The position numbers were made by a program, and so were the translations under genes. From positions 459,338 through 523,337 of the forward strand of contig JBPOHV010000001.1 of assembly GCA_052035175.1 (NCBI GenBank): DNA of 64,000 nt, in the 5' to 3' direction. This document shows, in pieces, positions 12,091 to 29,186 of the stretch. The stretch is from a candidate division WWE3 bacterium (lineage in GTDB: Bacteria > Patescibacteriota > WWE3 > UBA101185 > UBA10185). Numbering within the stretch: the first letter of the stretch is position 1; every line of letters begins with the position of its first letter. Under the pieces are notes generated by a model. It had not been told where the DNA came from. It searched no databases and worked only from the letters and a program-made list of their open reading frames with translations.

Positions 12091-12165
12091 TGGTGAGGGC
12101 GGTGGGGATCGGACCCACGACACGCGGCTTAAAAGGCCGCTGCTCTACCACTGAGCTACGCCCCC
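12091..12165 (-). tRNA. tRNA-Lys (anticodon UUU) with encoded CCA
   Basis: The minus strand reads GGGGGCG TA GCTC AGTGGTA GAGC A GCGGC CTTTTAA GCCGC ... GTGGG TCCGATC CCCAC CGCCCTC A CCA. The cloverleaf folds with one G-U pair in the acceptor stem. The T-loop reads UCC rather than UUC as transcribed here. Confidence 0.8.
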
Positions 12166-12370: not shown

Positions 12371-13537
12371 ATGTCACTAAGCATTTATCCAGAACATTAC
12401 TCAAACTTTGAAGATCAGCAAGAGACAGGCAAAAAGACTTACATACTACCAATTCCTAGTGGGGGATCTATAGAAATAACAGCAGCTCAAGAAAAAGGCA
12501 CGATGAAACAAGGTCTATACAGCGTTGTCTACCCATTGGACGATAACAGAGTAGCCAAATTGAGCCATTTGGGGGTTACAGATATGGCTGGTGGATCTAT
12601 AGAAATAGATGGTCCAGAATTGGGAGACCGTTTGCAAGAAGTTTCAGAGTCTTCTGATAAGTCTGCAGCTGATTTAGCAAGGCGCAAAGCTTGGGTGAAG
12701 ATGCTAGAGGTAGCCAATCACAAGCAAGATATTCATGAATATCTAGAGCATTACGTGCATGGGTTTTTACTAGACCGTGACCTTATGACGATTGTTGACT
12801 CTCCAAGGAAAGCTTTGGATAAAATCTTACAATCATTTCCTGAAGGCGCGTATATTGATAAGCGTGTGCCTGATCACGAAATAAGCGTTTTGGAGATAGT
12901 TGAGAAGATTAGATTTAGTTTTTCCGATTTACCATTTGAAGGGTTGCAAGTCGCTTACGAGCGCCCATCGATTAAGCCTCAACTTAAGCAATTTTCTACA
13001 GGCGCATTACATTCTATTTTACAAGGTGGTCAGATGCTAGATATATCAGATTCAAATGGTGTGAGGTTGGTTTTTAAAGATGGCAGTGACCCTGTAGATA
13101 CTACGAATATCGAAACACTCTTAGGAGTTTTGACTGGCGAAATAACAGATATTATGCCTGTACCCAAAAATGTCGGGGTTACAAAAGATAAGCAAAATCC
13201 TAGACTAGTTTTGTACGATGAAGACCCTCTTCACGAAATAATAAATACGCCTATGCACGGTTTTGCACACGAAATAGCAAATTTGATACGTAACCAAGAT
13301 TATCAAGGAATAAAAGATATGTTTGATGCAGATGAGATTGTAGAAAGACCAACAAAGTCCAATGAAACTGGTAGAGTAATAAGTAAAAAACCTGACGATC
13401 GCTTGTTGCAGGCTAAATTGGCCATAACTAATCATTTATTATTACTGAAATACCTAGGGGCTGATTTTGATGAAGATTACACTTTTGATGCTACGACAAC
13501 CCATCTTTTGAGGTCTAGAAAGCCTACACACGTATAA
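12371..13537 (+). CDS. Hypothetical protein
   Basis: Intact 388-aa ORF. Its 3' end overlaps the convergent sortase gene by ~60 nt. No motif recognised. Confidence 0.45.
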   Translation: MSLSIYPEHYSNFEDQQETGKKTYILPIPSGGSIEITAAQEKGTMKQGLYSVVYPLDDNRVAKLSHLGVTDMAGGSIEIDGPELGDRLQEVSESSDKSAADLARRKAWVKMLEVANHKQDIHEYLEHYVHGFLLDRDLMTIVDSPRKALDKILQSFPEGAYIDKRVPDHEISVLEIVEKIRFSFSDLPFEGLQVAYERPSIKPQLKQFSTGALHSILQGGQMLDISDSNGVRLVFKDGSDPVDTTNIETLLGVLTGEITDIMPVPKNVGVTKDKQNPRLVLYDEDPLHEIINTPMHGFAHEIANLIRNQDYQGIKDMFDADEIVERPTKSNETGRVISKKPDDRLLQAKLAITNHLLLLKYLGADFDEDYTFDATTTHLLRSRKPTHV

Positions 13538-13995
13538 AGAGTAATTCTTGAGTCATCGGTCTCGTTTAGTATGTGTGTTTGATCTGGGGACACCATAAAA
13601 GTGCTAGAAATTTCAAACTTTTGAGTTGATCCATCAGAATAATCGATTTCAATATAATCGCCTTTATTTACTTTGTTTAAGCTTCCCAAAAGGTTTGGTC
13701 GATTGTGACCATAGAACACACTATTTCCTTGTGCACCTGGGATAGGCGTATTCGACAAGTATGAAACGCCATCATCTGTATATTCCCACGTATGTCCTTT
13801 GTATGTACTTGGGAAAATGTTTAGGTCGATATTTACTGCAGGTATTTTTATTCTTTTTGGTAAAACATTTTTTTGTAAAGGTGTGTTTGCTGTTTCTGCG
13901 ATTATAGGTCTATTTCTCACATAGTAAATGTTGCCAATAGTATATATTGAATACGAACAAACCAGTAAAAGGGCTATAGTAATAGCTTTTTTCAT
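13477..13995 (-). CDS. Sortase (class E/A-like transpeptidase), membrane anchored
   Basis: N-terminal TM, a His-containing VFYGHN segment, and the catalytic TLxTC box ITLYTCVGF with a downstream Arg. Confidence 0.75.
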   Translation of the reverse strand: MKKAITIALLLVCSYSIYTIGNIYYVRNRPIIAETANTPLQKNVLPKRIKIPAVNIDLNIFPSTYKGHTWEYTDDGVSYLSNTPIPGAQGNSVFYGHNRPNLLGSLNKVNKGDYIEIDYSDGSTQKFEISSTFMVSPDQTHILNETDDSRITLYTCVGFLDLKRWVVVASKV

Positions 13996-13996
13996 T

Positions 13997-14647
13997 TTAG
14001 TCTTTCTTTTTATTTTTAGAAGGTCTGTTTATATAAACACTAGTACCGAATGTGGTAGCAGCTGTTATACCAAATCCAATAATTGCTGGAGTGTCACCAG
14101 TATTTGCGAGTCCTAGTACTTGGCCACCAATGCCCAAGCGCGTTGTTGAGTAACCTGTAGCCAGTATGTCCCCGCCAAGTCCACCGCGACCACCATCATT
14201 ATCGTCATCTTCATCTTCATCGTCGTCGTTGTTGTTATCGTGGCAATCGTAAGACAAGTTCTTTGCTAGGTAAGGCTCTTCCTCAAGTCCCCAAAGTGCT
14301 CCATTTGGGATATATGTCCAACCTTGCTTTTGAAGCTCTGCAACCTCTTCTAGAGACATTTCAGACACTTTCCACCAATTGGTTTGCGTTCCGTTACCTT
14401 CATTAGGACAAAAGCATTGTACCAAGGTGTCTTGTGTAAGCGTATAGACTGCATCGCTTCCAGTTTGTTCTGAATAAACTCCAACAATGCCGTGTATACC
14501 AGAAGCATATGAGACTTTAAGTTGTCCTTGTGGATTTTCGCAATCTGCAAAAGTAGGTTCTGATATCTCAGAAGCGTTGGTTATTTGAGTTACAGCAAGA
14601 GAAGCTATTAAAATAAATGTTGCTACAAAGAGCCTGCCTTTTTTCAT
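13997..14647 (-). CDS. Sortase-substrate surface protein with a C-terminal LANTG sorting signal (ORF-track start 14701; MKKGRLF signal-peptide start at 14647 is likely)
   Basis: The C-terminus reads LANTG, then a hydrophobic segment TPAIIGFGITAATTFGTSVYI, then a basic tail NRPSKNKKKD. There is an internal D/E-rich run DNNNDDDEDEDDDND. It lies immediately upstream of, and is co-oriented with, the sortase. Confidence 0.65.
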   Translation of the reverse strand: MKKGRLFVATFILIASLAVTQITNASEISEPTFADCENPQGQLKVSYASGIHGIVGVYSEQTGSDAVYTLTQDTLVQCFCPNEGNGTQTNWWKVSEMSLEEVAELQKQGWTYIPNGALWGLEEEPYLAKNLSYDCHDNNNDDDEDEDDDNDGGRGGLGGDILATGYSTTRLGIGGQVLGLANTGDTPAIIGFGITAATTFGTSVYINRPSKNKKKD

Positions 14648-14737
14648 ATAAAACATTGGCAGGTTGGGGCAGATAGTACCACAATGACCTATAAAGATCA
14701 ACTATAAGGAAGGCAGCACATACTTGGTTTGATATAG

Positions 14738-15982
14738 TTAGTTATTTGTGAAGTAATCGATAAGTGAGATTAACTTTTCGTGAAGTTTGTATAATAGGTT
14801 CTTTTTTTGCTTTATTAATTCGATTGTTATGTCTGCTTGTTCTGTTGTTGGAATATTTATACTTTTGTCGAAATAACCATCTGCCTTTATATCTACTTTT
14901 GTTGTGTTCTCTATGTATGTTATTTCAAACTTACCTGTATCGTTTGCAATAAATAATTTATTTCCAACATACAATTTGGCAAACGGTACACTTTTGCCCA
15001 AACTATTTATTATCTGACCTGTTAATACTTTTGGCGTGTAAAATTTTGTTAGCGTCGTCACAGCTTTTCGCGGTGTGCTATCTGGTTCCCATAATGCCGT
15101 AGAACTATCTATGTTTGACCAATAATTCATTCCAATAACGTTGTTGTTGTTCATCAATAAACTTAGTGCTTTTTCTAACCAGTCTTGTTGTTCCTGCTGT
15201 GTAAATTCTCCGTGTATGTCTGGAATTGGCGCGCCAAATTCTCCCAATATAATTTTTCCTCCACTTGATATCGCCAATTGTGTTAAATCGGCCGAAAGCT
15301 TTTCTGGAGTTTCAACGTAATGATCGACTGCTACTATTCCATCTAGTGCTTTTGTTGTTGGTTTATCCATTGTAGCTAAAGCAACATCGCCATTCATAGA
15401 TAAATAATTAGACGCGACATTTTTGTTTATTTTTTTGAACGCTGCTTTTGTAATCTTATATTCTTGTATCAAAAAATCTCGATGACCTTGTATATCACCT
15501 GTATGCCTTGGATCTCCAGGCCCGCCATTCTCACATTCTGGACATGCCGAAAAGACATCTCCATCTTCAAAAAGATCTTGATGTGACAAAATAAATTGTT
15601 CAGTCATTTCCAAATGCGTTTCGCGCGTTATACGTGGGTATTTGAACCATCCTTCCCAGCCGCTCCAGTTACCACGAAACCAAACATGCAAGTTATACTT
15701 TCTGGCTGTAGCAACCCATCTTTTTAAGAATGGTAGAAACTCTTCGTCATAAGGTGTCGCAATACCAATATGCGTAGCGCCAGTTTTTGCTATTTCATTT
15801 ACTTGTTGATCTATTATTGCGTCAAAAGTTGGATTGTCTAGTTTTTCGCGCGCTTTATCTCGAGAATATTTCATAGTATCAATTGATTGAAAGTCCCAAA
15901 GTGATTTTGCGGATATATGATGTGGTATCAAACTAATACACACAAATATTAATACAGAAAATAATTTTTTAGTGTTTTTCAT
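14738..15982 (-). CDS. Secreted TIM-barrel glycoside hydrolase (GH5/GH113-like)
   Basis: Signal peptide, then CPECENGG (acid/base-like) and ILGEFGAP (nucleophile-like GEFG) motifs. Confidence 0.5.
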   Translation of the reverse strand: MKNTKKLFSVLIFVCISLIPHHISAKSLWDFQSIDTMKYSRDKAREKLDNPTFDAIIDQQVNEIAKTGATHIGIATPYDEEFLPFLKRWVATARKYNLHVWFRGNWSGWEGWFKYPRITRETHLEMTEQFILSHQDLFEDGDVFSACPECENGGPGDPRHTGDIQGHRDFLIQEYKITKAAFKKINKNVASNYLSMNGDVALATMDKPTTKALDGIVAVDHYVETPEKLSADLTQLAISSGGKIILGEFGAPIPDIHGEFTQQEQQDWLEKALSLLMNNNNVIGMNYWSNIDSSTALWEPDSTPRKAVTTLTKFYTPKVLTGQIINSLGKSVPFAKLYVGNKLFIANDTGKFEITYIENTTKVDIKADGYFDKSINIPTTEQADITIELIKQKKNLLYKLHEKLISLIDYFTNN

Positions 15983-17673
15983 TTTTGATTGTTAAATGTA
16001 GCATCTGTATTTAGTTGACCAATATATTCTGGTTTTATTTCATAAATATCTGCAAAAGGGAATTTACCAACCAAATTATATTTTTCTAGACCTGTTGTTT
16101 CTTTTACTGCTTTCCATGTCAGGTCGTTATCGTCATATGTCCTCATGATAATCCAACGTGCCCACCTATCTGGTAAGGCTGTAGCGCTTTGCCAGTATAA
16201 GCCAGTACCTTCATGTATAAACCGTTTCATAGGCAAACCAGATGAAAATATAATTGCGTCGTGCGAAGCTGCTGATATTAAAACAAAGCCTTTTTCGTTT
16301 AATGCATGGTCATACAACCAACCACTTACTTCAGAGACATTTTTTTGGCTAGATCCAACTCGTGCATCGTCTATCGTTACCGCGTCAAAACTTACAAATT
16401 GAAAAAACGTAACTAAAAAGAGCAAGCCAGCTATTGCTATTCGCATGTTTACTGCTTTATCAAATAAGTATCCAATGAAAATAGCAATAGCTGGCATAAG
16501 CATTATTCCGTATCTTACATTAAACCAAGTATCACCAGATAAGCCTTGTATAAACAAAACAGAGTGCCCCATGTATAAAGCTAATATATTAAAAAAGAAT
16601 GGAGCTATAAGTGCTGTTGAAGCATACTTAACATACTTGGTTATTCTTTTATCAAACCATGAGTATACCAATCCTAATACTCCCAAGATTACGTGCATAG
16701 CCCCAGAGTTGTAGACTAACGCGTATATATAGAACTTTACAGATAACCATAAGTTATGCTTGGTTTGCAATACTCCTGCGTTTTGTAGTTGGTCTTGTTG
16801 TGCTTTGGCTGAAAATGGTCCAAAAGCAAAATATAGCGGGTCTTTAAATATCAAAGCGTTCCACAATAACCATAGCATTATGCCAAAAGAAGCGAGCGTA
16901 CCGAACAAAACCAAAGTTCCTTCAGTTTGGAAATAATTGTTTTTTAATTGGTGAAAAACCCTTTGTAATCTTTGTTTAAGTGGTGCATGTTCTATGTCGG
17001 CATATTTGAAAAGAGTATGTATTGCTACCAAAGCACAACCCCACGCAAGCAAAAACCAACCATCATATCTAGCTAATGTAGAAAACATTATCCACATAGC
17101 AGACTTAATTAAATGCAAGATCTTGTCATTTTTATGCCAAAGCATCAACTCGTATGCTGCTATTGTCATAGTCGCAATTAATAACAATTCGGTCATAGCG
17201 GTTGATTGCAGATAAAGTACATTTAAATTCGTCACCCATACGATTACGCCTGCAAGCTTTCCGACCATGCTTATATTCAAAGCATCTAGATATTTGTAGA
17301 TAATCATGCCTGTGACAACAAAAGAAATCATCGAGATGATTGCTCCTGCCAACCCAGAGTGCCACATAAAATCATTCCAGATTGTAGGTACCATTAGTAA
17401 ATGTGGTAACGGTAGCCAGACAGACCCCAACTGCGCAAGTCCTGGTTTCAAACCTTCTACTACGCGCCTACCAATATCCAAGTGTGAGCGAGCATCATTA
17501 TAAGCGAGACCTAAATGGTTGTTGTAATAATATATAAATTGAGAAATGGATATCGTAGAGAGTGCGATAAACAAAAATATAGAAATGTGTTTTTGCAAAA
17601 AATATACTAGCCGGTCAAACCAGTTTGTGGGGATATTGAGGCTAATAATGTATTTCTCGTGTTCATTTCTCAT
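15979..17673 (-). CDS. Polytopic membrane protein, GT-C-fold glycosyltransferase-like (ArnT/PMT-like), with a C-terminal soluble domain
   Basis: At least 10 predicted TM helices followed by a ~150-aa hydrophilic tail. Paralogous architecture to the next gene. Confidence 0.45.
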   Translation of the reverse strand: MRNEHEKYIISLNIPTNWFDRLVYFLQKHISIFLFIALSTISISQFIYYYNNHLGLAYNDARSHLDIGRRVVEGLKPGLAQLGSVWLPLPHLLMVPTIWNDFMWHSGLAGAIISMISFVVTGMIIYKYLDALNISMVGKLAGVIVWVTNLNVLYLQSTAMTELLLIATMTIAAYELMLWHKNDKILHLIKSAMWIMFSTLARYDGWFLLAWGCALVAIHTLFKYADIEHAPLKQRLQRVFHQLKNNYFQTEGTLVLFGTLASFGIMLWLLWNALIFKDPLYFAFGPFSAKAQQDQLQNAGVLQTKHNLWLSVKFYIYALVYNSGAMHVILGVLGLVYSWFDKRITKYVKYASTALIAPFFFNILALYMGHSVLFIQGLSGDTWFNVRYGIMLMPAIAIFIGYLFDKAVNMRIAIAGLLFLVTFFQFVSFDAVTIDDARVGSSQKNVSEVSGWLYDHALNEKGFVLISAASHDAIIFSSGLPMKRFIHEGTGLYWQSATALPDRWARWIIMRTYDDNDLTWKAVKETTGLEKYNLVGKFPFADIYEIKPEYIGQLNTDATFNNQK

Positions 17674-19390
17674 GATCAGGCTTTACAAATTTTAATAGTA
17701 TCAAAACAAAAGTGGATGATATCAAACCGTATATTATCCAGAAATATTGCCAAGCGGTTATATGTTTGTGTGCAAAGCTTACAAACCCAGCAGATTTTGA
17801 AATGTTACTACTAAGTGTATCCAAATTTCTTTGCACTGTATACCTTTGTACTTTATTTGTAGTCTTTTCTAAAGCGAGAATTTCCACTTTTGGAGGCATA
17901 GCATTAGATGTTAACGCTCCTGCAGTATTAATATATGCAGATACATCAAACAAAATCACAAAAGCAATTACAAATAAAAAGCTTTTTTTATAGTTTGAAA
18001 GCGCTATCGCTAAATAAATAGCCAATATACCAAATACAGGAACTAAGTACCTTGGGCCAAACGCCCATCCACCCCAAACATCACCCCACATGGCATAAAG
18101 ACATACCAAGAGGCCAGAAACTCCTAGGAGTAGCGTGTGCATAACTTTATTAGATTTTTGTAAGAAGGCCATTCCATAAAAAGCCAAGATCATTACAGGT
18201 GCAAAAAATATAAATCCGCGATCTGGACTCAAAAATAAGATATACAGCCCATTTAACATTTCTCGCGTTTCAAAGTAATGCAAAGTATTTCTACTTTCGG
18301 TCTCTTGTTCAACGTCAAGATTTTCTTTTATAACAGCCTTGTTTTCGTCTTTGAATACTATTGGGTTACCTTGTTTGTCAAATTCCTGTACTTGTACAAC
18401 CGTACCAGCCAACTGCAAAGGATTTCCGTAAGATGTTTTATTAAACCAAAAGAAGAACGCAATAGCAGGAATTGCAGTGACTACACACAGAGTATATAGA
18501 GGTCTAAAAACCATTTTTAATTTATTGGTCTCTTTAGATATTTTTAGTACTTGTGTAACTGCATATATAGCAAAAGGTAGTAAAATTATCGCATTTGGGT
18601 AGTCTACTGAAATTGCAAGAAAGTAGGTAAAAGAAATAACCAACAATGTTTTATAGTTATCCCACTTCACAATCGCGTACAGACTTATCAAAATTAATAG
18701 TAATGTAACGTGGTGTTGATAAAGGCTTACTCCATATGCAAAAGCATTGGTGCCGAATAAAAAAGCCAGTGCAGCCAATACAGCTGCATATTTATTTGCT
18801 CCTAATTTTTTTGAAATCTCTATAATCAGTAAAACATTTATAAAAGCAATAAAAGTAATTACAGCATAAGTTCCCAATTGTGCTGCACCCAAAGCTTTAC
18901 CTATAACATATCCTGGAATTATTAAAAAAGAAACGCCTGGTGCAAATAACGAAACAAAGTTCCCATTAAAAAATCCCAAGTCGGGTGCAGCCAAACGCGC
19001 GACATCTTTTGAAAAATACAGTGTGTGATCTTCGACGACCGAATACATAAGCGCATAGCGTCCTCTGTCTGGGGATAGCTCGAGCGGGCCATCTTCTTTC
19101 CAGTTACTAGTGTTGAGTTCGGTTATAGAAGGATTTCCCACCATGCCTTTTATGCTTAGTGCAAGTATTGCAATTACTAAGATAAAGGCTATATATAGTG
19201 TTTTTTCTTTTATGCTTATTACTTTTTGAACCAATTGCTTAAGTAAAGGTGCAGCTATTTTGGCATTTATATCGAGGTTAGATATTTTGTTGTATATATA
19301 CTTTACGTTAAGCATTTTAGATATTCTGATATTTATTTTTAATAACAAAATTTTCGAAATCGACTTCATCGTATCTAATAATGTCTCCAA
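17663..19390 (-). CDS. GT-C-fold membrane glycosyltransferase (ArnT/PMT family-like). An alternative start at 19315 would avoid overlap with the SDR gene.
   Basis: Many TM helices, a large extracytoplasmic loop, and a C-terminal WGDVWGGWAFGPRYLVPV segment typical of PMT_2/ArnT-like enzymes. Confidence 0.5.
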   Translation of the reverse strand: METLLDTMKSISKILLLKINIRISKMLNVKYIYNKISNLDINAKIAAPLLKQLVQKVISIKEKTLYIAFILVIAILALSIKGMVGNPSITELNTSNWKEDGPLELSPDRGRYALMYSVVEDHTLYFSKDVARLAAPDLGFFNGNFVSLFAPGVSFLIIPGYVIGKALGAAQLGTYAVITFIAFINVLLIIEISKKLGANKYAAVLAALAFLFGTNAFAYGVSLYQHHVTLLLILISLYAIVKWDNYKTLLVISFTYFLAISVDYPNAIILLPFAIYAVTQVLKISKETNKLKMVFRPLYTLCVVTAIPAIAFFFWFNKTSYGNPLQLAGTVVQVQEFDKQGNPIVFKDENKAVIKENLDVEQETESRNTLHYFETREMLNGLYILFLSPDRGFIFFAPVMILAFYGMAFLQKSNKVMHTLLLGVSGLLVCLYAMWGDVWGGWAFGPRYLVPVFGILAIYLAIALSNYKKSFLFVIAFVILFDVSAYINTAGALTSNAMPPKVEILALEKTTNKVQRYTVQRNLDTLSSNISKSAGFVSFAHKHITAWQYFWIIYGLISSTFVLILLKFVKPDHEK

Positions 19391-20063
19391 TTATTTCTGC
19401 AACCCGATATGGGGACAAGTGATTGCCTGCTTTACTAGATACAAAATTTGTCATAGCAGATGGTAAGACGGCAATTACTCTTATGCCAAAGGGTTTTAAC
19501 TCATTTTTAAGAACATTAGTCATGCCTTCGACTGCATATTTTGTACTAGCATACAAAGATTTGTAAGGTGAGATCATACTATTGCGGGAGATTTTAGAAC
19601 CAATGTTTATTATAGTTCCTTGTTTTTGCTCTTTCATGTATTCTGCTGCATACTTTGATGTCAAAAAGTTTGATTTGATATTAACCGCAAGATATTCGTC
19701 TATGATATCTGAGGTAATCTCGCTTAGTTGTTTGTCGTATGTTACCGCGGCATTATTTATCAAAACATCTATTTTGCCGTATTCTTTGTGTATTTGATCA
19801 AAAATTGCGGCCACTTCGCTTTCATTTGTTATATCGCAAACCAGTGTATGCAACTTGTCTTGATTAGTAGCCGCAGATCTTGATAATGCGATAACATTAG
19901 CACCAGAATTATGCATATACTCTACAAGACACTTACCCAACCCCGTACTTGTACCAGTAATCACGATGATTTTTTCTGACAATTTGTTACTCGTCGGAAC
20001 CTCTAGCAGTTTTTGTTTGACAAGCAGATGAATTGTACGTTTTATATCCTTTAAAATTGTCAT
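19317..20063 (-). CDS. Short-chain dehydrogenase/reductase (SDR) family oxidoreductase
   Basis: ITGTSTGLG is the TGxxxGxG motif. Also NNAAV and the catalytic Ser...YASTK. Confidence 0.8.
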   Translation of the reverse strand: MTILKDIKRTIHLLVKQKLLEVPTSNKLSEKIIVITGTSTGLGKCLVEYMHNSGANVIALSRSAATNQDKLHTLVCDITNESEVAAIFDQIHKEYGKIDVLINNAAVTYDKQLSEITSDIIDEYLAVNIKSNFLTSKYAAEYMKEQKQGTIINIGSKISRNSMISPYKSLYASTKYAVEGMTNVLKNELKPFGIRVIAVLPSAMTNFVSSKAGNHLSPYRVAEIIGDIIRYDEVDFENFVIKNKYQNI

Positions 20064-20064
20064 A

Positions 20065-21237
20065 TTAAATTTTACTCATATAAAAATCGTGCATTCTTTT
20101 TGCTACTTCTTCCCATGTGTTTCTTAAGCCAAATTCTCGACTATTATTTTCAATTTGCTTAATTTCATCAGAGTTAGAATGCTCTAATACATAGTTAATC
20201 TTTTTTGCTAATGCATCACTATCTTTTGTTTCTATAAGATAGCCAGTTTCATTATCTTTGATTAAATAGGGGAGTGCGGTATTGTTTGCTACGATGCAGA
20301 CTTTTCCTTGACTTAAACCTTCGTGAACCACATTACAAAAGCTTTCCCACAAAGCCATATGCACCATCATTTGAGAGTGTTTGATCAAATAGTATTTATC
20401 GATGCCTTTTGAGATACCATAAAATATGACTCTATCTTCTACGCCCAAGCTTTTTGCCAAGTTGATTAACATTGTTTTATAACTTTCTTCTCCTACCGGA
20501 CCTACCAATAAGTATTTTACGTCTTTTGGTAATTTTGTAAGAGCCTTTATAGTTGTTTCATTATTTTTAATTTTGTAGATACGGCCAATCTGAATAATGT
20601 ATCTTCCAAATTGGTTTACGTGAGTCTTTACCAATGCACTTGCTTTGGCATCTACATCTTCAAAAGCTTCGTTTTCGAGCCCATTGTCGATAACTACTAC
20701 TTTTTCTTTGTTTACTCCTTTTGCAACAATTTGTTCTTTTTCCCATTCTGATACAGCCCTCACGCCATCAACAACAAGGTTTATCATCAATGTACCTAAA
20801 GTATAATGATATGTGGATTTCACTAGTCGTGTTGGAAGATCATATATAGACCATTCAGGATTAAACCCACCGTGTGGTGTTAGAAAGAGCTTAAATTTCT
20901 TTTTACCAAATATTTTTAGTATCAATGCAAAAGCCATTATGGCGAAATGAGGTAATATGTTGAAATTGTGCAAACATACAAAGTCTGCCTTTTGCCAATC
21001 TATTTTAGGCCAATAACCCATAGGCCCATAATTATATCTATTAACATTAATACCACTTATGATTTCTTCAGACTTCAGCACGTTTTTTTCGGTCAACGTA
21101 TCTGTAGTCGTATGCATGATTATGTCCCAGCCGCCTTTTACAAGCACTTTGTAAGTTTCATGTGTATTTACCTCAATTCCAGCTGTTACAGGAATAAAGT
21201 ATTTTTCTATAACATGTACAATCTTTTTTTCTGACAT
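20065..21237 (-). CDS. GT4-family (GT-B) glycosyltransferase
   Basis: C-terminal EX7E-type motif HMALWESFCNVVHEGLSQGKVCIVANNTALPYLIKDNETGYLIE. Confidence 0.7.
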   Translation of the reverse strand: MSEKKIVHVIEKYFIPVTAGIEVNTHETYKVLVKGGWDIIMHTTTDTLTEKNVLKSEEIISGINVNRYNYGPMGYWPKIDWQKADFVCLHNFNILPHFAIMAFALILKIFGKKKFKLFLTPHGGFNPEWSIYDLPTRLVKSTYHYTLGTLMINLVVDGVRAVSEWEKEQIVAKGVNKEKVVVIDNGLENEAFEDVDAKASALVKTHVNQFGRYIIQIGRIYKIKNNETTIKALTKLPKDVKYLLVGPVGEESYKTMLINLAKSLGVEDRVIFYGISKGIDKYYLIKHSQMMVHMALWESFCNVVHEGLSQGKVCIVANNTALPYLIKDNETGYLIETKDSDALAKKINYVLEHSNSDEIKQIENNSREFGLRNTWEEVAKRMHDFYMSKI

Positions 21238-21977
21238 TATGCTTTCCTCGCTTTTATAGAAACTATAACTGGGAAGTATTGATCATTGTAATCAAGTTCT
21301 TTTTTATCCATTTCTTCTAACGCCATTCCAACCCAGAAACATTGGCCTGCCAATGCATTTCCATATGTTTTAACTTCGAGTTCATCATGTACGAAGTATT
21401 TGTTAAAAATATATTCACCAGAAGCACGTGTCCATCTCCAATGATGGTGGTCGATATTCCAGACTGGTCCCAAGCATGGCATTGTAACAAGTATATATCC
21501 ACCTTTCTTCAAGATTCTATGACATTCTTTAATAGCTGCAGGGTAGTCATCGATCATTACAAAAGTTTGAGTGATTATCAAACAATCATATGTTTCATCA
21601 GCAATGTCTTTTAAGTCTCTTAAGTCTCCATAAAGATTGGCAACTTTATTATTTGTGTTTATATCCAAAGCATCTGCCCTAGAAACTTTTTCTTTGCCGT
21701 ATTTTTGTATATAAGCTGTGTCTGTAATTTCCAAGCAAGCTCCCTTTACTACATCAGCATTTTTTTCCATAAATTGTTCTATATAATATCGATCTATTGG
21801 TGTGCCTCTATCGTATCCGTAGACAGTGCTTAGCGGTTCTACGTTTTTAGTGTCTTCTACTCTTTTTGGTAATGGTGCGATGTAATAATTACTCAATGGT
21901 CTTAGTGTTTTCACTACAACATTTTGCACTTTTCGTACTATTTTATAAACTATTGAATTAGGATCTTTTTTTATCAT
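21237..21977 (-). CDS. Class I SAM-dependent methyltransferase (tentative)
   Basis: ACLEITDT...DCLIITQ...ILKKGGYILVT has Rossmann MTase-like spacing. Confidence 0.5.
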   Translation of the reverse strand: MIKKDPNSIVYKIVRKVQNVVVKTLRPLSNYYIAPLPKRVEDTKNVEPLSTVYGYDRGTPIDRYYIEQFMEKNADVVKGACLEITDTAYIQKYGKEKVSRADALDINTNNKVANLYGDLRDLKDIADETYDCLIITQTFVMIDDYPAAIKECHRILKKGGYILVTMPCLGPVWNIDHHHWRWTRASGEYIFNKYFVHDELEVKTYGNALAGQCFWVGMALEEMDKKELDYNDQYFPVIVSIKARKA

Positions 21978-22795
21978 AATATTGATCTTTCTATTATTTG
22001 TTTTTTTACAAATTTCTTAATAAACTTTCTAAACTTTATTACAGATGGAGATATTGTCCATAAGACTTCATTTATCCCGTGCGAACTATCTATTCCCACT
22101 CTTGGAATAGTTAGTAAGTCAGTGTTGGATGTTAGCGCCGCGTCATCCATACTAAATGCCGCTGTATACCCAGCTGATCTAATATATTTCAACACGTCGC
22201 TTGTATAATTTCCCTTTGGATAAGCAAAATAGTCTATGTTTATACCTAGGTCCGCCTGAAGCTTTTCTTTTGCTGTGATTACCTCTTCTTTTATCTGTGC
22301 TTTTGAAATACCAGAAAAGTTGATATGAGTCAAACTATGAGCCCCTACAGACCAGCCATTTCTATATAGCATTTTAATGTCATCGATAGATAAAAAGTCT
22401 TTTTTTGTATTCAAAGCTAGTTCGCCAAAATTATAATTTTCAGTATCAGCTATTACAAATATGCATGGTTTTATTTTCAATTGTTCCAAAAATTGCTCCG
22501 TTCGCAATATGTTTTTATATCCGTCGTCAAACGTTAGAACTACAGATTTTGTCATCGGCTTATTTGTTTGGAGATTTTCTAGCAGTTCGTTTACAGTTAT
22601 GAAGTTATATCCGTGCATTAAAAGTTTATTTATGTGTAATATGAATAGTTCTGGTTTTGTACTAAATCTCCATGCATCATTTGAAATACTGTGGTAACAC
22701 AAAACAACTGCGCTATTCTTTGTCTGCAGTATGTTGTCGATACTAAATAACGTAAAATAAATTATTTTTCTAATTAGTATAAAGAAGTTTTTCAT
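21974..22795 (-). CDS. Polysaccharide deacetylase (NodB homology domain, CE4) with an N-terminal membrane anchor (ORF-track start 22831)
   Basis: VVLTFDDGYKN (the TFDDG motif) and WSVGAHSLTHINFS (the His motif). Confidence 0.75.
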   Translation of the reverse strand: MKNFFILIRKIIYFTLFSIDNILQTKNSAVVLCYHSISNDAWRFSTKPELFILHINKLLMHGYNFITVNELLENLQTNKPMTKSVVLTFDDGYKNILRTEQFLEQLKIKPCIFVIADTENYNFGELALNTKKDFLSIDDIKMLYRNGWSVGAHSLTHINFSGISKAQIKEEVITAKEKLQADLGINIDYFAYPKGNYTSDVLKYIRSAGYTAAFSMDDAALTSNTDLLTIPRVGIDSSHGINEVLWTISPSVIKFRKFIKKFVKKQIIERSIL

Positions 22796-23721
22796 ATGTT
22801 TACTGTCTTTGACGAATTTGCCAATGTCCATGTGTCTTTATTGATTTTTTCAGGTTTGATTGCACTATACAGATAACAATATAAGACTAAGAAAGGATAT
22901 ATAGTGCTGTAAATAGGACTTTTTAGAAATACCTTTATTCCAGATATTGCTAGTTTTACCCATGGCCATTTAGTAAGTCTATGTATCAATTGCTTAGGTA
23001 AATCGTCATAAAATATCTTGTTAGAATTATAAAAGCGTATTTCTTGTTTTAAATGATCGTATAACGTTGCAGGTAATGCATACCAGCATTCTGTATCTTT
23101 TACAAAACTAAACTTAAACCCATTAGCGTGACAAAAAATATACGAATACATATCTTCTGCAAAGCTCTTTTTGAATTCAAATTTAAGTACAAATGCTTTG
23201 GATAAGGCTCTAATAGTGCCGTGGCAATTGTACCAATTATCACCGTCATTTAGATCTTCAAACGTTTCTCTTTTTATTTCGTTCCCAATAGCGAGAACTT
23301 TTTCTATAAATGTGCGTGGCTTGCTTTCTAAAAGGCGACAAGATACTAGATCGGCATGATCTTCACTTATTGGCTTGATCATTTTTTGTAAGCATTTGTT
23401 ATCTGTAATTCTAATGTCACCATTTAACAACAATACTATGTCAGCATTTTTATAGTGCATCAATTCATTTGATCTTGCGGCTAAGCCTTTGTTTTCTTTA
23501 TTGTCTACAACGATGATTTTGTCATTACTGACACTTTGCGCTTGCGCTACCGTATTATCGGTAGAACCATCAGAAAGAACAACTATGTTTATTAATTCAA
23601 ATGTTGATATGTCTTGTGCAACTAGGTCTGTTAAAAGATTTTTTATATTTGATCCTTCGTTGTAAGCTGGTATTCCGATAAGTACTTTTGGTTTATCCAT
23701 ATTATTTGTTTGAGTTACCAA
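22792..23721 (-). CDS. GT2-family (GT-A) glycosyltransferase
   Basis: IGIPAYNEGSNI and VVLSDGSTDNT motifs. Confidence 0.75.
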   Translation of the reverse strand: MVTQTNNMDKPKVLIGIPAYNEGSNIKNLLTDLVAQDISTFELINIVVLSDGSTDNTVAQAQSVSNDKIIVVDNKENKGLAARSNELMHYKNADIVLLLNGDIRITDNKCLQKMIKPISEDHADLVSCRLLESKPRTFIEKVLAIGNEIKRETFEDLNDGDNWYNCHGTIRALSKAFVLKFEFKKSFAEDMYSYIFCHANGFKFSFVKDTECWYALPATLYDHLKQEIRFYNSNKIFYDDLPKQLIHRLTKWPWVKLAISGIKVFLKSPIYSTIYPFLVLYCYLYSAIKPEKINKDTWTLANSSKTVNI

Positions 23722-26221
23722 CTTTATCTGTCAAATTTAGTTTCCATACAGAATCTTCTATATTAGACGTTTGAATACTGAGTGTTTTTCGTATTTCGTG
23801 TAAAAATTTATTTGCTGTCATTTCCCAGCTAAAATTATTTGCCCACAATTTACCAGTCTTACCAAATGTAGTTCTTAATTCATGATCAGATATCAATTTA
23901 TCAAGGGCTTCTGCTGTTTGGTCTACATTTGCCCATTCGACCAGCAATCCAGTTTTTTCATGATTTACCGATTCTTTGAGTCCGGGAACATTTGTTGCAA
24001 CTACTGGAGTTTCACACATATTTGCTTCTATAACAGTAATTCCCCAACCTTCTACCATTGATAATTGTACTGCTATCCACGATTTGGTAAACAGTTGTGC
24101 CTTTGTTTTTTCAGTAACATTACCTTTGAAAACCACATGTTTTTGAAGTCCTAATTGGTTGACTTGTGCTTTTAGTGTTTTTTCGTGTTCTCCGCTTCCG
24201 GCTATTATCAGCTTGATATTAGTATATTTCTCTTTTAATTTATGAATAGCGTGAATTGCTGTATCTACGCCTTTATACTCGCGCAGACGTCCAAGATATA
24301 AAACGGTTGGCGTTGACGTCTTTTTCACTTTTGCTGGTTTGATTTCGACGCCAGGGTACATAATTTCTATGTTTTGATTTTTCCCAAGACCTATTTTGAG
24401 CATTTCTTCTCTTGTAGAATCTGATACAGCTAACATTTTGATTTTTCTGTATAAGAACGGCATCAATATACCTTCTAAAAACATAGAAAGTTGCTTGGTA
24501 GGGAATGGTAATTCTTTTTTAAACATTTCTTGATGTACTTGATGAACAAGACATATCTTTGGTTTTGTTACAAATAGAGGAGTAAAGAAAGGTACACCTT
24601 TGGGAATATCGATGACTACATCAAAGTTTTTTCTAAACTTGATTACGTAATATATAAATCCCCAGATTGCTACAGTATAAATCCCGCCGCGTCTAAAAAC
24701 TTTAACGCCATCTACTTCTTCATAATGCTCGCTTTGTTGATCATTTCCGCAAAAGAATGTTACATCATGCCCTTGTTTCACAAAATTTTTAGCAACTTGA
24801 TGTATATATATTTCTGCACCGCCACCCCATACGTGTTTTGTATCGTACCAGTTATATATTAATATACGGAGCTTATCAGGGTTTAGTTTACGTGGTTTGG
24901 GAAGAGGCGAGAACAACCCATAAAAAGCTACTAGGTTATTTAACGCTATTTCTATATGAGTATTAAACAAATGCAAAAGTAGTGCCGTACTCAAATTTAC
25001 AAATCCTAGTACAGCCATAAGTATGACGAAGCTTTCTAAATCGGTATTAAAATGTCCAAGCACATATATTTGTACTAAAGCTAGTAAAAAGCTAGTAATT
25101 GGGAACAAAGATTTGTCTTTAATTTGATAGTAACCAAAGATTGTAGAGGCCAACGAAAACAAAAGTACTGCAAAGCCATAAATAGGTAAAAGCTCAGTTA
25201 CATTTGAGATCTTATCTCCAAATAAAAACGCTGCAGTGTGATTGCCAAAGAGTCCTACTGCTATATATACACAAAAGCTACATAACGCAGAAATGAAGAA
25301 CAAAGTATAAAACTTGTTAGAACTATCTACCTTTGAGCCTTCATCTTTACTAACTAACGGTAAGATAAATTGACTAAAAAGGCCTCCTATCGAAAATATC
25401 ATTTTGCCGACCAAAGCTACTAATGCGTATTCACCTGCTTCAATTGGAGATAAATAGTGTTTTGCTAAAAGCACATCAAAGCTTAAAAAAGCTATAATCG
25501 AGAAATTATACACAAATGAAGACGTATAGAATTTTGTTGGGAATTTGATGTTGTCCGATTTAGCTTGTGCTGTTTGTTTTCTAACCATGAATTTTACAGA
25601 GAGATATGCTATCGACAAAGCTACAAACAGTGATGTAGGTATAGCCAAATAAGCAAATTCGCCATAGCCAGTTACGACTAAGATATATGCAACGAGAAGC
25701 TTACAAATAGCTTCTACAGTTATCAAAATTCCAACAGCAGTAAACTTCAAATTACCGTTTATAAAGCCAGTATCTATAGAAGCTAAGCTTGCTATGAAAA
25801 TACAAGGTGTAAACAAAAGTATAGGTAGTAGTGAGTCGGTTTTAAAATAGTTCATCAAGAAAGGGGAGGCAACGATCCATACAACACTGAACAATCCAGA
25901 AATCAAAAAGATATTTTTGCGAGTTTCATACCAAAACGTTGTAAATGGTTTTTTATATTTTCCAAAATAAAAAGCAGACTCGTGTATAACTGTACGGTTC
26001 AAAGCATTTAGCGGTATCGATAATAAAAATAAGAAGCTACCGATCAAACTAATCAATCCAAAATCTTCGATTGACACAGCTCGCGTTAAAAAAGCGTTAT
26101 AGGCGTAGTTGAGAAAATTTGCAACTACACCAGAGGCTACAAGAACCATTCCAGATGTTGCATAAGCTTTTACCGAGGAAAAAGCTTTGTTGATTAGTGC
26201 ATAAATTTTGTTTAGCACCAT
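23702..26221 (-). CDS. Fusion protein: N-terminal Wzx/MOP-type polysaccharide flippase-like polytopic domain plus C-terminal GT4 glycosyltransferase
   Basis: The first ~430 aa contain more than 12 TM helices of the polysaccharide-biosynthesis-protein type. The last ~380 aa are GT-B, with LAVSDSTREEM...EGWGITVIEANMCETPVVATNVPGLKESVNHEKTGLLV. Confidence 0.65.
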   Translation of the reverse strand: MVLNKIYALINKAFSSVKAYATSGMVLVASGVVANFLNYAYNAFLTRAVSIEDFGLISLIGSFLFLLSIPLNALNRTVIHESAFYFGKYKKPFTTFWYETRKNIFLISGLFSVVWIVASPFLMNYFKTDSLLPILLFTPCIFIASLASIDTGFINGNLKFTAVGILITVEAICKLLVAYILVVTGYGEFAYLAIPTSLFVALSIAYLSVKFMVRKQTAQAKSDNIKFPTKFYTSSFVYNFSIIAFLSFDVLLAKHYLSPIEAGEYALVALVGKMIFSIGGLFSQFILPLVSKDEGSKVDSSNKFYTLFFISALCSFCVYIAVGLFGNHTAAFLFGDKISNVTELLPIYGFAVLLFSLASTIFGYYQIKDKSLFPITSFLLALVQIYVLGHFNTDLESFVILMAVLGFVNLSTALLLHLFNTHIEIALNNLVAFYGLFSPLPKPRKLNPDKLRILIYNWYDTKHVWGGGAEIYIHQVAKNFVKQGHDVTFFCGNDQQSEHYEEVDGVKVFRRGGIYTVAIWGFIYYVIKFRKNFDVVIDIPKGVPFFTPLFVTKPKICLVHQVHQEMFKKELPFPTKQLSMFLEGILMPFLYRKIKMLAVSDSTREEMLKIGLGKNQNIEIMYPGVEIKPAKVKKTSTPTVLYLGRLREYKGVDTAIHAIHKLKEKYTNIKLIIAGSGEHEKTLKAQVNQLGLQKHVVFKGNVTEKTKAQLFTKSWIAVQLSMVEGWGITVIEANMCETPVVATNVPGLKESVNHEKTGLLVEWANVDQTAEALDKLISDHELRTTFGKTGKLWANNFSWEMTANKFLHEIRKTLSIQTSNIEDSVWKLNLTDKVGNSNK

Positions 26222-26222
26222 A

Positions 26223-28382
26223 TCAGCCGCCGATCTTGGCAGGAACTTGGTTAGCAGCCTTTTTAAGATGGAGACCGTGTTGTGTTTTTTCCCAGTGATG
26301 TGGTTTAAATAACAATTGATAAAATGCCATTACTGCAGCAATACTCATCAAAAACCAATAAAAGGGTACTAAAAAGACGTATTTCATGAGTTCCCAGTGG
26401 CCTCTTTTTGCAAGGCCTATCATATAGTTGTACAAGTATAAAAAGTTGCCGAATACCAGTGAAATAGCCCCCATATAAAACACAGTTGTTGGATAAAAAG
26501 ATTCAATAGTTGGTCCTACATATTTATATAAAACAAAATATGAAATAGTCATCGCCCACCAGATAGGATTAATCAAAATGAATATAATTCTCAAACCAAT
26601 TATCAACTGGAATAGTAATGCATGTGCGCCGTTTGTTCTAAAGAAGTTTATTGGGTCGCGCATGTGTACCTGATATGTTTGCATGTAGCCTTTGAGCCAG
26701 CGTGATCTTTGGCGGATCCAGTTCTTTGTATTGCTGTTTGCTTCTTCTAGTGTTACAGAATCAATAATTGCAGTTTTGTATCCTTCTTTAAATAGCCTTA
26801 CTCCCAAATCACAATCTTCTGTTACATTAAATGGATCCCAACCTTCAAGCTCTCGTAATTTCTGAGTTTTGAAATGATTGCTTGTGCCACCTAAAGGTAT
26901 ATAAGTGTCGATGCTTTGTAAACCTGGTAAAACTACATCAAACCACAAAGAATATTCCGCAGTAAATAAGCGTGTTAATAAATTGTGGTGTGGGTTGTAA
27001 TAATTGAGTTTTGCCTGGACGCAGACTGTTTTTTCACCAAGCTGTGTGAACGCAAGGTATGCTTTTTTTAACTGCATAGGCTCAGTTTTATCTTCAGCGT
27101 CATATATTACTATATATTCACCTTTTGCTTGTAACAACCCGTAGTTGCACGCTTTTGGTTTTGTTTTTGGTGCTGAATGAGGAGTAACTACTATTCTAAA
27201 GTAATCGGGTAAACTCATACTTTGTGCCACATGTATAGTTTTAGCATCGTCTTCTTCAAGTAACAAAATGACATCAAGTTTATTTTTTGGCCAATCAATA
27301 TTGTTGATAGCTTCGATGAAATGAGGCAAAACTTCGGATTCTTTATATAAAGGACACAAGATCGTATAAACCGGTAATGTTTTGTCGTTTATACTGGCTA
27401 ATTGTGCGTCTGAAAAAGCCAGTTCTGGCGGAAAATAGAGGCTTTTTGATATAACGAATACGCTGAAAATGACATCTGCAAAATAAATAGCAGTTAAAAA
27501 AGCAATAAGGCCAATAAGTGTGTACATGTAATTTGTATAGAGTCCATAACCTAATGCAAGTATTCCAGATACTATTATAATTTTTTGCCATCTTTGAAAT
27601 GTGTATATAGCCGATTTTGAATGATGTCTATTTGTGTGAGTTACATATTTCTTTTTCCTATAAATAACGCCAGATTCAATGTTATAGACTCTTCTATTCT
27701 TAAACCTAGTTTTAAAAGCGCACTTAGCTATATCAAAACCTGTTTTTAGGATACCAACCTTTGATGCGCCTTCTTCTCGAGCTTCAAACTCTATGTCAAC
27801 TTTGTCGATTTTGTATCCCAATTCTTGTGCCGCGAATAAAAGTGGGATATCAAATGTCCATGGTGTTACGAGAGACTTGTCTATTTCTATTCCTATACTT
27901 TTTCTAAAAATCTTGAGACCCGATTGAATGTCTGTATTTATACCAGCCAGCAATCTACCAAAAACAAATACCCCCAATCTAGACAATATTCTGCGTAGAA
28001 GAGGTGCTTTAAAGACTTTTCTGTTTGCTACAACTACTCCTATTGTTTCGTCTTGCATCTTGGCATACATCTCTGGTAGGTATTTGGGTGAGTACTGCAA
28101 ATCACCGTCTATAAAAGCTATCAATTTGGCATCAGATACAGATATACATTCAAGTAGCGTATACCCTTTGCCAGGTTTACCTTGCTTTTCGTGTAATAAT
28201 ATTTGATTCTGATCTTTAATTTTGTGTATTTCTTTGAGTGTGTTGTCGGTAGATTTATCGACGCCAAAAAGTATCTTATAGTCGATATTTAGTGGGTCAA
28301 GTGCACTTTTTATACCAGCCACCATTTTGGCAATATTCTTTTCTTCGTTTTTGACTGGTACTATTATGTCTAAGTCTCTCAT
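26223..28382 (-). CDS. Tandem GT2 fusion: polyprenyl-phosphate glycosyltransferase-like (DPM1/GtrB-like) domain, TM segment, then a processive synthase-type GT2 with a QxxRW motif and C-terminal TMs
   Basis: The N-terminal domain has IIVPVKNEEKNI...FIDGDLQY. The second domain has LCPLYKESE...YDAEDKTEP...NWIRQRSRWLKGY (the Q/RxxRW box). It is flanked by multiple TM helices. Confidence 0.65.
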   Translation of the reverse strand: MRDLDIIVPVKNEEKNIAKMVAGIKSALDPLNIDYKILFGVDKSTDNTLKEIHKIKDQNQILLHEKQGKPGKGYTLLECISVSDAKLIAFIDGDLQYSPKYLPEMYAKMQDETIGVVVANRKVFKAPLLRRILSRLGVFVFGRLLAGINTDIQSGLKIFRKSIGIEIDKSLVTPWTFDIPLLFAAQELGYKIDKVDIEFEAREEGASKVGILKTGFDIAKCAFKTRFKNRRVYNIESGVIYRKKKYVTHTNRHHSKSAIYTFQRWQKIIIVSGILALGYGLYTNYMYTLIGLIAFLTAIYFADVIFSVFVISKSLYFPPELAFSDAQLASINDKTLPVYTILCPLYKESEVLPHFIEAINNIDWPKNKLDVILLLEEDDAKTIHVAQSMSLPDYFRIVVTPHSAPKTKPKACNYGLLQAKGEYIVIYDAEDKTEPMQLKKAYLAFTQLGEKTVCVQAKLNYYNPHHNLLTRLFTAEYSLWFDVVLPGLQSIDTYIPLGGTSNHFKTQKLRELEGWDPFNVTEDCDLGVRLFKEGYKTAIIDSVTLEEANSNTKNWIRQRSRWLKGYMQTYQVHMRDPINFFRTNGAHALLFQLIIGLRIIFILINPIWWAMTISYFVLYKYVGPTIESFYPTTVFYMGAISLVFGNFLYLYNYMIGLAKRGHWELMKYVFLVPFYWFLMSIAAVMAFYQLLFKPHHWEKTQHGLHLKKAANQVPAKIGG

Positions 28383-28511
28383 ATTTCATATAAACCCAAC
28401 TGCAGTGCCCTGGCCGGATAGTAAAGATGATTATACCCGATTATCTGGCTATTTCAACTTTTATGGTATATGTTGCCAGTATATAGTAAAGTATTTAATT
28501 ATGGTGCTTAT

Positions 28512-29186
28512 ATGAGACTATTACTTGTAGAAGACGAAGTTAAATTGTCTAGCAACCTTAAAAAGCTATTAAAAGGGGAGTCCTATAGTATTGATGTCTC
28601 TGATACAGGGGCTTATGCACTTGAACTAGCTAATACGACAAATTATGACGTAATCATTCTAGACCTTGGTTTGCTAGATATGTCTGGCTTGGAGGTTTGT
28701 AAAAAGTTTAGAGAGCAGTTAATAACTTCGCCTATACTTATACTTACTGCGAGAGATGATGTTTTTTCTAAAGTAAAAGCATTGGATTCTGGGGCAGATG
28801 ACTATTTGGTGAAGCCTTTTGAATTTAATGAACTTACCGCACGCTTACGTGCTTTGCTTCGTAGAAATACGGCAGTACTAGATACTATATATAGTATTGA
28901 TTCTTTAGAGATATATCCAGATAAAAAATTGTGTGTTCGCGAAGGTCGTGACGTTGCGTTGAGTGCAAAAGAATACGCATTGCTAGAGTATTTGATACGA
29001 AATAAAGACAAAGTAATCTCAAAAAGCCAGTTGATCGATCATGTATGGGATGACGGTTTGGATCCATTTTCTAATGTTGTCGACGTATATATTGGTTATG
29101 TACGCAATAAAATAGATAAGGCATTTCCAGACGCCAACCCATTGGTACATACAATAAAGGGATTAGGTTATAAACTATCGTTATGA
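28512..29186 (+). CDS. OmpR-family response regulator (ORF-track start 28470)
   Basis: A receiver domain MRLLLVEDE...DVIILDLGLLDMSG...LTAR...LVKPF plus a winged-helix effector domain. It is divergent from the glycan locus. Confidence 0.85.
   Translation: MRLLLVEDEVKLSSNLKKLLKGESYSIDVSDTGAYALELANTTNYDVIILDLGLLDMSGLEVCKKFREQLITSPILILTARDDVFSKVKALDSGADDYLVKPFEFNELTARLRALLRRNTAVLDTIYSIDSLEIYPDKKLCVREGRDVALSAKEYALLEYLIRNKDKVISKSQLIDHVWDDGLDPFSNVVDVYIGYVRNKIDKAFPDANPLVHTIKGLGYKLSL

Follow-up and report, generated by a model that had tools for sequence, protein, structure and literature searches.

We propose, with moderate confidence, that two adjacent genes in a 64,000-nucleotide stretch of a candidate division WWE3 genome (contig JBPOHV010000001.1; the whole stretch is referred to here as the window) encode a dedicated and co-evolving sortase-substrate pair of the Microgenomates type of candidate phyla radiation (CPR) bacteria, and that they are the last two genes of a conserved envelope-glycan operon. 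In this model the 216-residue substrate would be exported by Sec, and its Trp-rich domain of about 105 residues would fold extracellularly, probably with two disulfides. The C-terminal signal, GQVLG-LANTG-D followed by a membrane helix and a basic tail, would retain the protein in the membrane, where the adjacent membrane-anchored sortase (His97/Cys156/Arg164) is predicted to cut between Thr183 and Gly184 and to join the carboxyl group of the Thr to an amine acceptor, the likeliest being a peptidoglycan precursor. The domain would thereby be displayed on a flexible low-complexity spacer, which here is rich in Asp, Glu and Asn. Attachment to the wall is what we infer by analogy, given the mechanism known for sortases and the peptidoglycan synthesis reported for CPR bacteria (PMC7143001). 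Once displayed, the domain may act on or with an envelope glycan, perhaps as something that binds or organises that glycan at the wall, as is suggested by the strict co-location of its gene with genes for deacetylases, for glycosyltransferases (GT) of families GT2 and GT4, and for proteins that resemble GT-C enzymes and clan GH-A glycoside hydrolases (GH). The pair and its parts are as follows.

13997..14647 (read 14647→13997), minus strand: sortase substrate gene, 216 residues, with a signal peptide, a four-Cys Trp-rich domain of about 105 residues, a low-complexity linker and a LANTG signal
14243..14557, minus strand: conserved globular domain, residues 31-135 (alignment A1 and AlphaFold2)
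14195..14239, minus strand: run of 15 Asp/Glu/Asn residues, residues 137-151, inside the disordered linker
14096..14110, minus strand: LANTG sorting motif, residues 180-184, with GGQVLG directly before it
14000..14095, minus strand: hydrophobic segment and basic tail, residues 185-216
13477..13995 (read 13995→13477), minus strand: putative dedicated sortase, 172 residues, with an N-terminal membrane anchor and H97, C156 (in TLYTC) and R164

Pairing of the sortase with its substrate

A preliminary description of this DNA, made from its letters alone, had seen a sortase next to a co-oriented substrate, and the pair is genuine. Both genes lie on the minus strand with a gap of 1 nt between the substrate stop codon and the sortase ATG, and the sortase matches Pfam Sortase PF04203 at 82.5 bits (cut-off 26.6, E = 2.8e-23) and TIGR01076 at 43.5 bits (cut-off 39.35). 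A survey of one genome per GTDB species with a narrow alignment (A4) found 98 relatives, from which 80 loci were kept, and in 72 of these an open reading frame (ORF) for a sortase of this type, referred to as the cassette type, abuts the substrate gene. Seventy of those 72 tails passed the scoring filter and every one carries [L/F]AxTG; the other two have LAPTG with a slightly longer tail (L075) and LASTG in a fusion (L066). In L068 and L079 a different type of sortase adjoins the substrate, and exactly these two substrates carry LPKTG; the LPKTG-associated sortase reaches 38-43 bits on the cassette profile and has class C, at 72 bits, as its best NCBIfam model. At L021:9989-10507 (CP066693.1, a complete Woesebacteria chromosome) there is no adjacent sortase and the motif has decayed to LSNTS, despite which the substrate keeps its helix and basic tail. 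Starting reciprocally from sortase homologues, a family substrate with LAxTG lies directly upstream in three cases out of three. The pairing is strict, and sortase type and motif co-vary; this is not chance, because motif, pair and tail recur in about 235 homologues and upwards of 80 loci.

The sortase of the LPKTG loci represents a second CPR type (motifs FSHS...LMTCTPPGT...KRLLV), for which class C is the best class, below its cut-off, and which was located at four loci.

L068:865-1611: second sortase type, adjoining the substrate
L079:10458-11072: second sortase type, adjoining the substrate
L009:18993-19664: second sortase type, an extra copy 4-9 kb away
L034:13825-14385: second sortase type, likewise an extra copy at 4-9 kb

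Two loci depart from the simple arrangement. In L066:3883-5058 (= P0279, 378 residues) LASTG, the helix and a KRKK run continue in frame into a sortase anchor and catalytic domain, which is a natural fusion of substrate and sortase unless a stop codon was lost or the assembly is wrong, and in L101 two cassette-type sortase genes (276-821 and 855-1394; 196 and 115 bits) stand in tandem behind one substrate gene. Many of the contigs that carry the cassette (L014, L017, L018, L022, L031, L044 and others) bear public record titles that read 'uncultured Gammaproteobacteria', 'Pseudomonadales', 'Weeksellaceae' or 'Bathyarchaeia'; on contigs with a CPR-specific cassette such titles are probably automatic mislabels or bin contamination. 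A further group consists of variants in which the same N-terminal domain, often with FN3, is followed by about three membrane helices, a conserved 'PC[KR]YFW' motif and a basic tail in place of LAxTG.

L084:9920-10942: membrane-helix variant
P0322, P0323, P0333, P0336, P0342 and P0351: further membrane-helix variants

In L084 the same glycan cassette is present and no sortase is found in the 11.5-kb locus, the contig ending about 590 nt past the substrate gene. The membrane-anchored variants with no sortase (L084, P0333, P0342 and P0351) indicate that surface tethering is the conserved requirement and, since they swap the sorting signal for membrane helices, that tethering rather than a special sortase-made linkage is what matters.

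The substrate itself is small, as had been described, and LANTG, a hydrophobic stretch and basic residues make up its C-terminus in that order. Besides the start that gives 216 residues, an ATG at 14656 (219 residues, the public gene call P0001) and a TTG at 14701 are possible. The N-terminus is a signal peptide, MKKGRLFVATFILIASLAVTQITNA. There are exactly four Cys residues (C36, C78, C80 and C135, hence a CxC), and residues 137-151 form an uninterrupted run of Asp, Glu and Asn, DNNNDDDEDEDDDND; both features are present just as the preliminary description had them. LANTG is followed by DTPAIIGFGITAATTFGTSVYI, 22 mostly hydrophobic residues, and then by the tail NRPSKNKKKD, so that the C-terminus has the layout of a sorting signal, namely a pentapeptide, about 20 hydrophobic residues and a basic tail at the extreme end, and this layout is kept across the substrate family.

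Within the domain, alignment A1 shows the four Cys residues to be invariant, the aromatics W91, W92, W110, W119 and Y126 to be conserved, and K93, in a WWK, to be at least 90% conserved. A structure prediction had been recommended for the substrate, and AlphaFold2 gives a confident, beta-rich domain at residues 31-135 (predicted local distance difference test score, pLDDT, about 95), a disordered stretch at residues 155-183 (pLDDT <50) and a helix at 186-206. A Foldseek comparison with the PDB returned no match (best E = 0.79). Searches against Pfam and NCBIfam gave no match for the substrate even at permissive thresholds; the LPXTG anchor models PF00746 and TIGR01167 found nothing at E<=5 (Pfam) or E<=0.01 (NCBIfam), as is expected because the motif contains Ala. 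A search of 5.8 billion proteins gave 92 homologues, and every one that has a name belongs to CPR/Patescibacteria, for the most part to Microgenomates lineages. Out of 1.84 billion cluster representatives a profile search retrieved only 373 at E<=1e-3, of which 343 reach E<=1e-10, leaving hardly any twilight zone. Judged by these searches the substrate family is small and sharply defined.

Sorting signals were scored in 235 family members, 202 of which have xxxTG with a tail of adequate length behind it. Among the 202, Leu stands at position 1 in 173 members and Phe in 23, whereas at position 2 there are 185 members with Ala and no more than 9 with Pro, by which the LAxTG tail noticed in the window is conserved in orthologues. 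The residue that follows the Gly is Asn in 112 of the 202 and Asp in the window substrate (LANTG-D), and the five residues ahead of the pentapeptide have the consensus G-Q-V-L-G, giving a family consensus of G-Q-V-L-G-L-A-x-T-G-N. In alignment A1, T183 and G184 are invariant and L178, G179, L180 and A181 at least 90% conserved. When a pattern for the back-translated GQVLGLAxTGN was run on JGI metagenome contigs, 25 DNA matches were obtained, 23 of them genuine C-terminal signals; all 23 belong to the substrate family and 22 have an adjacent sortase. Degenerate upstream copies of the signal ('xVLGxST', e.g. QVLGTTTSSGQVLGTTTDQVLGLATTGN) occur in 49 of 188 members by a loose pattern, about a quarter, for instance in the tails of P0020 and of the P0098 type and at residues 160-179 of the window substrate, and they look like tandem duplications of the signal region.

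The spacer between domain and motif is about 35 residues long, disordered and variable in composition. Long, variable and disordered linkers are typical of wall-spanning regions. Across 163 homologues the linker is acidic in 14 and Ser/Thr-rich in 90, and in 16 an FN3 domain takes its place; the acidic members are the nearest relatives of the window substrate. The Asp/Glu-rich run, to which the preliminary description had given prominence, is by this count not a family trait and is ruled out as a functional hallmark; on the distribution of linker types we regard it as a clade-specific spacer.

Sortase class and the pocket position

The class of the sortase was judged by NCBIfam class hidden Markov models, whose cut-offs are 140-166 bits, and by ranking against PDB chains, whose sequences were searched with a profile built from six cassette sortases. 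Every NCBIfam class model stays far under its cut-off for the window sortase. The best is class D (46.2 bits, cut-off 165), followed by class GN (TIGR03784; 44.3 bits, cut-off 158), class F (42.3 bits, cut-off 166) and class C (NF033745; 42.2 bits, cut-off 160), and class E is the lowest of the seven sortase models (NF033747; 24.9 bits, cut-off 160), two further cassette sortases reaching 29-32 bits on it. The PDB ranking places Clostridium perfringens SrtD (4d70, class D) first among solved relatives at 52 bits, then Bacillus anthracis SrtA (2kw8, class A) at 44 bits, several class C chains at about 40 bits and Staphylococcus aureus SrtA (SaSrtA, class A) at 36 bits; the class E chains 5go5 and 5go6 follow at 14.5 bits (E = 0.2). 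H97, C156 and R164 are invariant in alignment A3 and in the 72 cassette sortases.

Class E enzymes are distinguished by an insertion of about 21 residues between beta6 and beta7, a functional cytoplasmic N-terminal segment and a conserved Tyr of the beta3/beta4 loop at the S3 subsite (PMC5148588). The 172-residue sortase has only 3 residues ahead of its membrane anchor and no cytoplasmic N-terminal segment, and the beta6/beta7 insertion is missing, because the His-to-Cys spacing is 59 residues compared with 64 in SaSrtA. The class E identity that the preliminary description implied from the motif is ruled out by the model score, the PDB ranking and the absence of these two structural hallmarks. 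On its sequence, the enzyme is best assigned to a small, unclassified clade of CPR sortases outside class E.

A class C pilin sortase is likewise ruled out, and the absence of any specific grouping with class C agrees with what the preliminary description had supposed. In addition to the low model score, none of DPW, DPF and DPY, the forms of the class C lid motif DP[WFY], is found in the 172-residue protein, and there is no C-terminal membrane helix, the chain ending 8 residues past the catalytic Arg. These observations bear on a different role for the pair. A dedicated sortase beside a small, compact, beta-rich substrate recalls pilin-sortase gene pairs, and the enzyme could act as a fibre or pilus polymerase that joins Thr183 to a conserved Lys of the next subunit, e.g. 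K93 with its conservation of at least 90%, to make a covalent homopolymer, leaving the anchoring to the second sortase type present in some of these genomes. We give such a polymer little credence: apart from the class C evidence, the substrate has no YPKN-type pilin motif, its long disordered spacer between domain and motif is unlike pilins, and the membrane-helix variants keep both domain and cassette with no sortase to polymerise them.

How a sortase outside class E would select Ala may be read from a single pocket position, with SaSrtA serving as the reference. In an alignment to SaSrtA, which is an approximate reference here, the equivalent of A104 is Leu in 60 of the 72 cassette sortases and Ala in four of four LPKTG-type sortases; the position before it is Tyr in 48 of the 72, its register relative to Tyr229 of SrtE1 not being fixed. 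A preference for LAxTG is reported to go together with a bulky side chain here, be it Tyr229 of SrtE1 or the A104H substitution of an evolved SrtA (PMC5148588). The Leu is a candidate determinant of Ala specificity, and the cassette sortases may have come to prefer Ala at P3, position 2 of the motif, by another route than class E.

The glycan gene neighbourhood and the rest of the window

The pair closes a block of 12 genes on the same strand (28382→13477), in the order double GT2, GT4, GT2, deacetylase, methyltransferase, GT4, short-chain dehydrogenase/reductase (SDR), 575-residue protein, 564-residue protein, 414-residue protein, substrate and sortase. The preliminary description had placed the glycan genes (14738-28382) downstream of the pair; they are in fact upstream (5'), because both genes of the pair are on the minus strand and the glycan genes have the higher coordinates.

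14738..15982, minus strand: secreted 414-residue protein, with a (beta/alpha)8 barrel, a CarboxypepD_reg-like beta-sandwich and a C-terminal helix (AlphaFold2)
15979..17673, minus strand: 564-residue polytopic membrane protein, possibly GT-C-like
17663..19390, minus strand: 575-residue polytopic membrane protein, possibly GT-C-like
19317..28382, minus strand: upstream cytoplasmic glycan genes, namely SDR, GT4, methyltransferase, polysaccharide deacetylase, GT2, GT4 and double GT2 (Pfam)

The cytoplasmic genes carry likenesses to known enzymes at sub-threshold NCBIfam scores. The double-GT2 protein (719 residues) is similar in its C-terminal half to PgaC/IcaA and cellulose-synthase-type enzymes and in its N-terminal half to polyprenyl-phosphate sugar synthases, in each case below the cut-off, and a PgfS/ArnC likeness is among those found. 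One GT4 protein has 839 residues and the other is Agl16-like, the GT2 protein has 309 residues and the deacetylase is IcaB/PgaB-like.

The 414-residue protein has no sequence-family match and 2439 homologues at 50-60% identity; AlphaFold2 models it at a pLDDT of 89.7, and Foldseek matches its barrel in the PDB to GH2, GH157, GH5, GH30, GH113, GH10 and GH79 enzymes at E values from 1e-11 to 1e-7, so the modelled fold resembles clan GH-A glycoside hydrolases. E110, E149, E151 and E248 are invariant in it. The protein also contains a weak TasA-like stretch (E ~0.004-0.05), and genes of Peptidase_M73 (camelysin/TasA-like) lie just downstream of the pair at L001:7496-10212 and L006:7550-8146. The 564-residue membrane protein is unusually conserved across Microgenomates, with 59-69% identity, a mean column identity of 67% (alignment A5) and an invariant YNDARSHL...RRVVEGLKPG loop after the first helix; one of 15 members of its family matches PMT_2 (E = 2e-5). 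The 575-residue protein matches the NCBIfam putative glycosyltransferase LA_3751/LA_3752 at E = 4e-9, with 35.7 bits against a cut-off of 200, and in its family PMT_2 appears, again at E = 2e-5, in two of 15 members and a TMEM260-like match in one. Neither membrane protein of the window has a Pfam match, the 564-residue one matches nothing in NCBIfam either, and profile searches of both against PDB sequences came back empty.

The same genes accompany the pair elsewhere. Five distant homologue loci have the order ~500-residue membrane protein, ~535-residue membrane protein, ~410-residue protein, substrate and sortase; the 414-residue gene immediately precedes the substrate gene in 57 of 69 loci, and all three cassette genes are upstream of it in 41 of 53. 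At 45 of 53 loci there are GT or deacetylase genes no more than 10 kb away, although a deacetylase is not found at every locus. In 13 loci the GT genes come after the pair rather than before it, which means that the linkage to the glycan cluster survives rearrangement. A promoter and terminator scan of 13200-15000 performed no better than on shuffled sequence, and no terminator was found between the substrate and sortase genes.

The persistent link of the pair to a polysaccharide deacetylase and a PgaC/IcaA-like synthase raises the thought that the nucleophile might be a free amine of the de-N-acetylated polysaccharide made by the operon, sortases requiring merely a primary amine. Sortase A accepts aminosugars in vitro. 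The enzyme would then be a protein-glycan ligase that attaches the protein to an amino sugar instead of to peptidoglycan, or that primes the polymer on the protein, and if this were true a sortase-made protein-glycan conjugate would be a conserved component of the Microgenomates envelope. We consider this very improbable, as the deacetylase is missing from some loci and the sortase-free membrane-helix variants show a system that works without a bond made by a sortase.

Several points weigh against the dedicated pair that we propose. LAxTG is kept with no adjacent sortase in L008, L022 and L065; the L008 contig stops just past the substrate gene, so that only L022 and L065 are informative, and in these a sortase encoded elsewhere can evidently serve an LAxTG substrate. 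The term 'dedicated' is established locally, in 64 kb of a genome of about 925 kb, and LAxTG substrates that do not have the GQVLG extension may exist elsewhere in the genome. Cleavage, acceptor and wall linkage are predictions by analogy, and the pocket comparison carries the approximate reference mentioned above. The two membrane proteins are only weakly assigned to GT-C, with PMT_2 in three of 30 members and in neither window protein; gene neighbourhood is the one basis that suggests a functional link of the pair to a glycan, and the substrate domain has no Pfam or PDB fold match that would suggest a function.

The first of these points favour a housekeeping enzyme instead, a general LAxTG sortase that would be functionally equivalent to class E and serve several substrates elsewhere, its neighbour being merely one of them. 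Méheust et al. 2019 (PMC6744442) report a sortase family that almost all Microgenomates have, and both the unaccompanied substrates of L022 and L065 and the share of the genome scanned leave room for this reading. We nevertheless think it unlikely. Neither the 64-kb window nor a further 1.23 Mb from related loci yielded another credible sorting-signal ORF, and the window, in which no second sortase was found, encodes surface proteins of 1214 and 1949 residues that have no sorting signal. Furthermore, the extended signal is exclusive to the substrate family in 23 of 23 cases, and gene adjacency is strict in both directions. A dedicated pair at the end of a glycan operon therefore remains our preferred account.

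The remainder of the window offers a few separate observations. A 388-residue ORF with no family match (12371-13537, plus strand) converges on the sortase gene, the 3' ends overlapping by 61 bp, and a tRNA-Lys (12091-12165, minus strand) lies just upstream of that ORF. A large serine recombinase of 570 residues with Resolvase and Recombinase domains (45904-47616, plus strand) overlaps at its 3' end a tRNA-Glu (47576-47650, minus strand), which may mark the edge of an integrated element; an Rfam scan of the window returned three tRNAs and nothing else. The 1949-residue protein has FN3 repeats (50628-56477, minus strand) and is encoded beside a MacB/FtsX-type ATP-binding cassette transporter pair (47730-50631, minus strand), and the GC content of the window peaks at 54-56 kb (0.42), where the GC skew is strongly negative (-0.31). 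The 1214-residue protein (32514-36158, plus strand) combines a PQQ-like beta-propeller with three Big_7 immunoglobulin domains, its gene being placed divergently near a two-component system (28470-30160).

Related systems and the Microgenomates envelope

A close parallel is SrtE1/SrtE2 of Streptomyces coelicolor with the chaplins ChpA-C (PMC5148588), which share with our pair the LAxTG motif and small secreted substrates, attached to the surface as is predicted for ours. The cassette enzymes would also resemble SrtE1 in a bulky residue of the S3 pocket region, the subsite for the second motif residue: Tyr229 in SrtE1, and Leu with a neighbouring aromatic here. They differ in sequence class and in the beta6/beta7 insertion and cytoplasmic N-terminal segment that the CPR enzyme does not have; moreover, class E sortases are housekeeping enzymes of Actinobacteria with many substrates, whereas the cassette sortases stand in a 1:1 relation with a single family in CPR bacteria.

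In genetic arrangement a close system is class GN ('marine', subfamily 6; TIGR03784), which in Haft's models has a single, adjacent, dedicated target. It likewise places sortase and one substrate side by side with a pair-specific signal, but the window sortase scores 44 bits against 158 on its model, envelope, motif and target are different, and there is no glycan operon. Class D (C. perfringens SrtD 4d70; B. anthracis SrtC) is the best-scoring relative and also comprises small enzymes with few substrates; the score is nonetheless 46 bits against a cut-off of 165, and class D recognises LPNTA-type signals with Pro. Finally, the operon recalls the synthase-dependent Pga/Ica-type systems for poly-N-acetylglucosamine, which also combine a synthase-like GT2 gene with a deacetylase and a secreted protein resembling glycoside hydrolases. 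The likenesses here lie below cut-offs, and this operon adds two GT-C-like membrane proteins and a predicted sortase-anchored protein.

That CPR bacteria have sortases and that class E enzymes use LAxTG signals was already known. Papers on CPR genomes mention sortases in passing and name no substrates (PMC6744442, PMC7143001, PMC4736985), and a literature search combining LAXTG with Patescibacteria found no paper. The substrate family, its extended signal, the 1:1 co-variation of sortase type and motif, the apparent Ala specificity outside class E and the conserved cassette are new. No principle is overturned by this sortase-substrate pair. A natural specificity for Ala at P3 outside class E would be relevant to efforts to engineer orthogonal sortases. 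Little is understood of the CPR/Patescibacteria cell envelope. For Microgenomates this analysis defines a concrete family of substrates with its extended signal, GQVLG-LAxTG-N, and an envelope cassette of five conserved genes, which together provide a testable handle on an uncharacterised and highly conserved glycan system of uncultivated bacteria.

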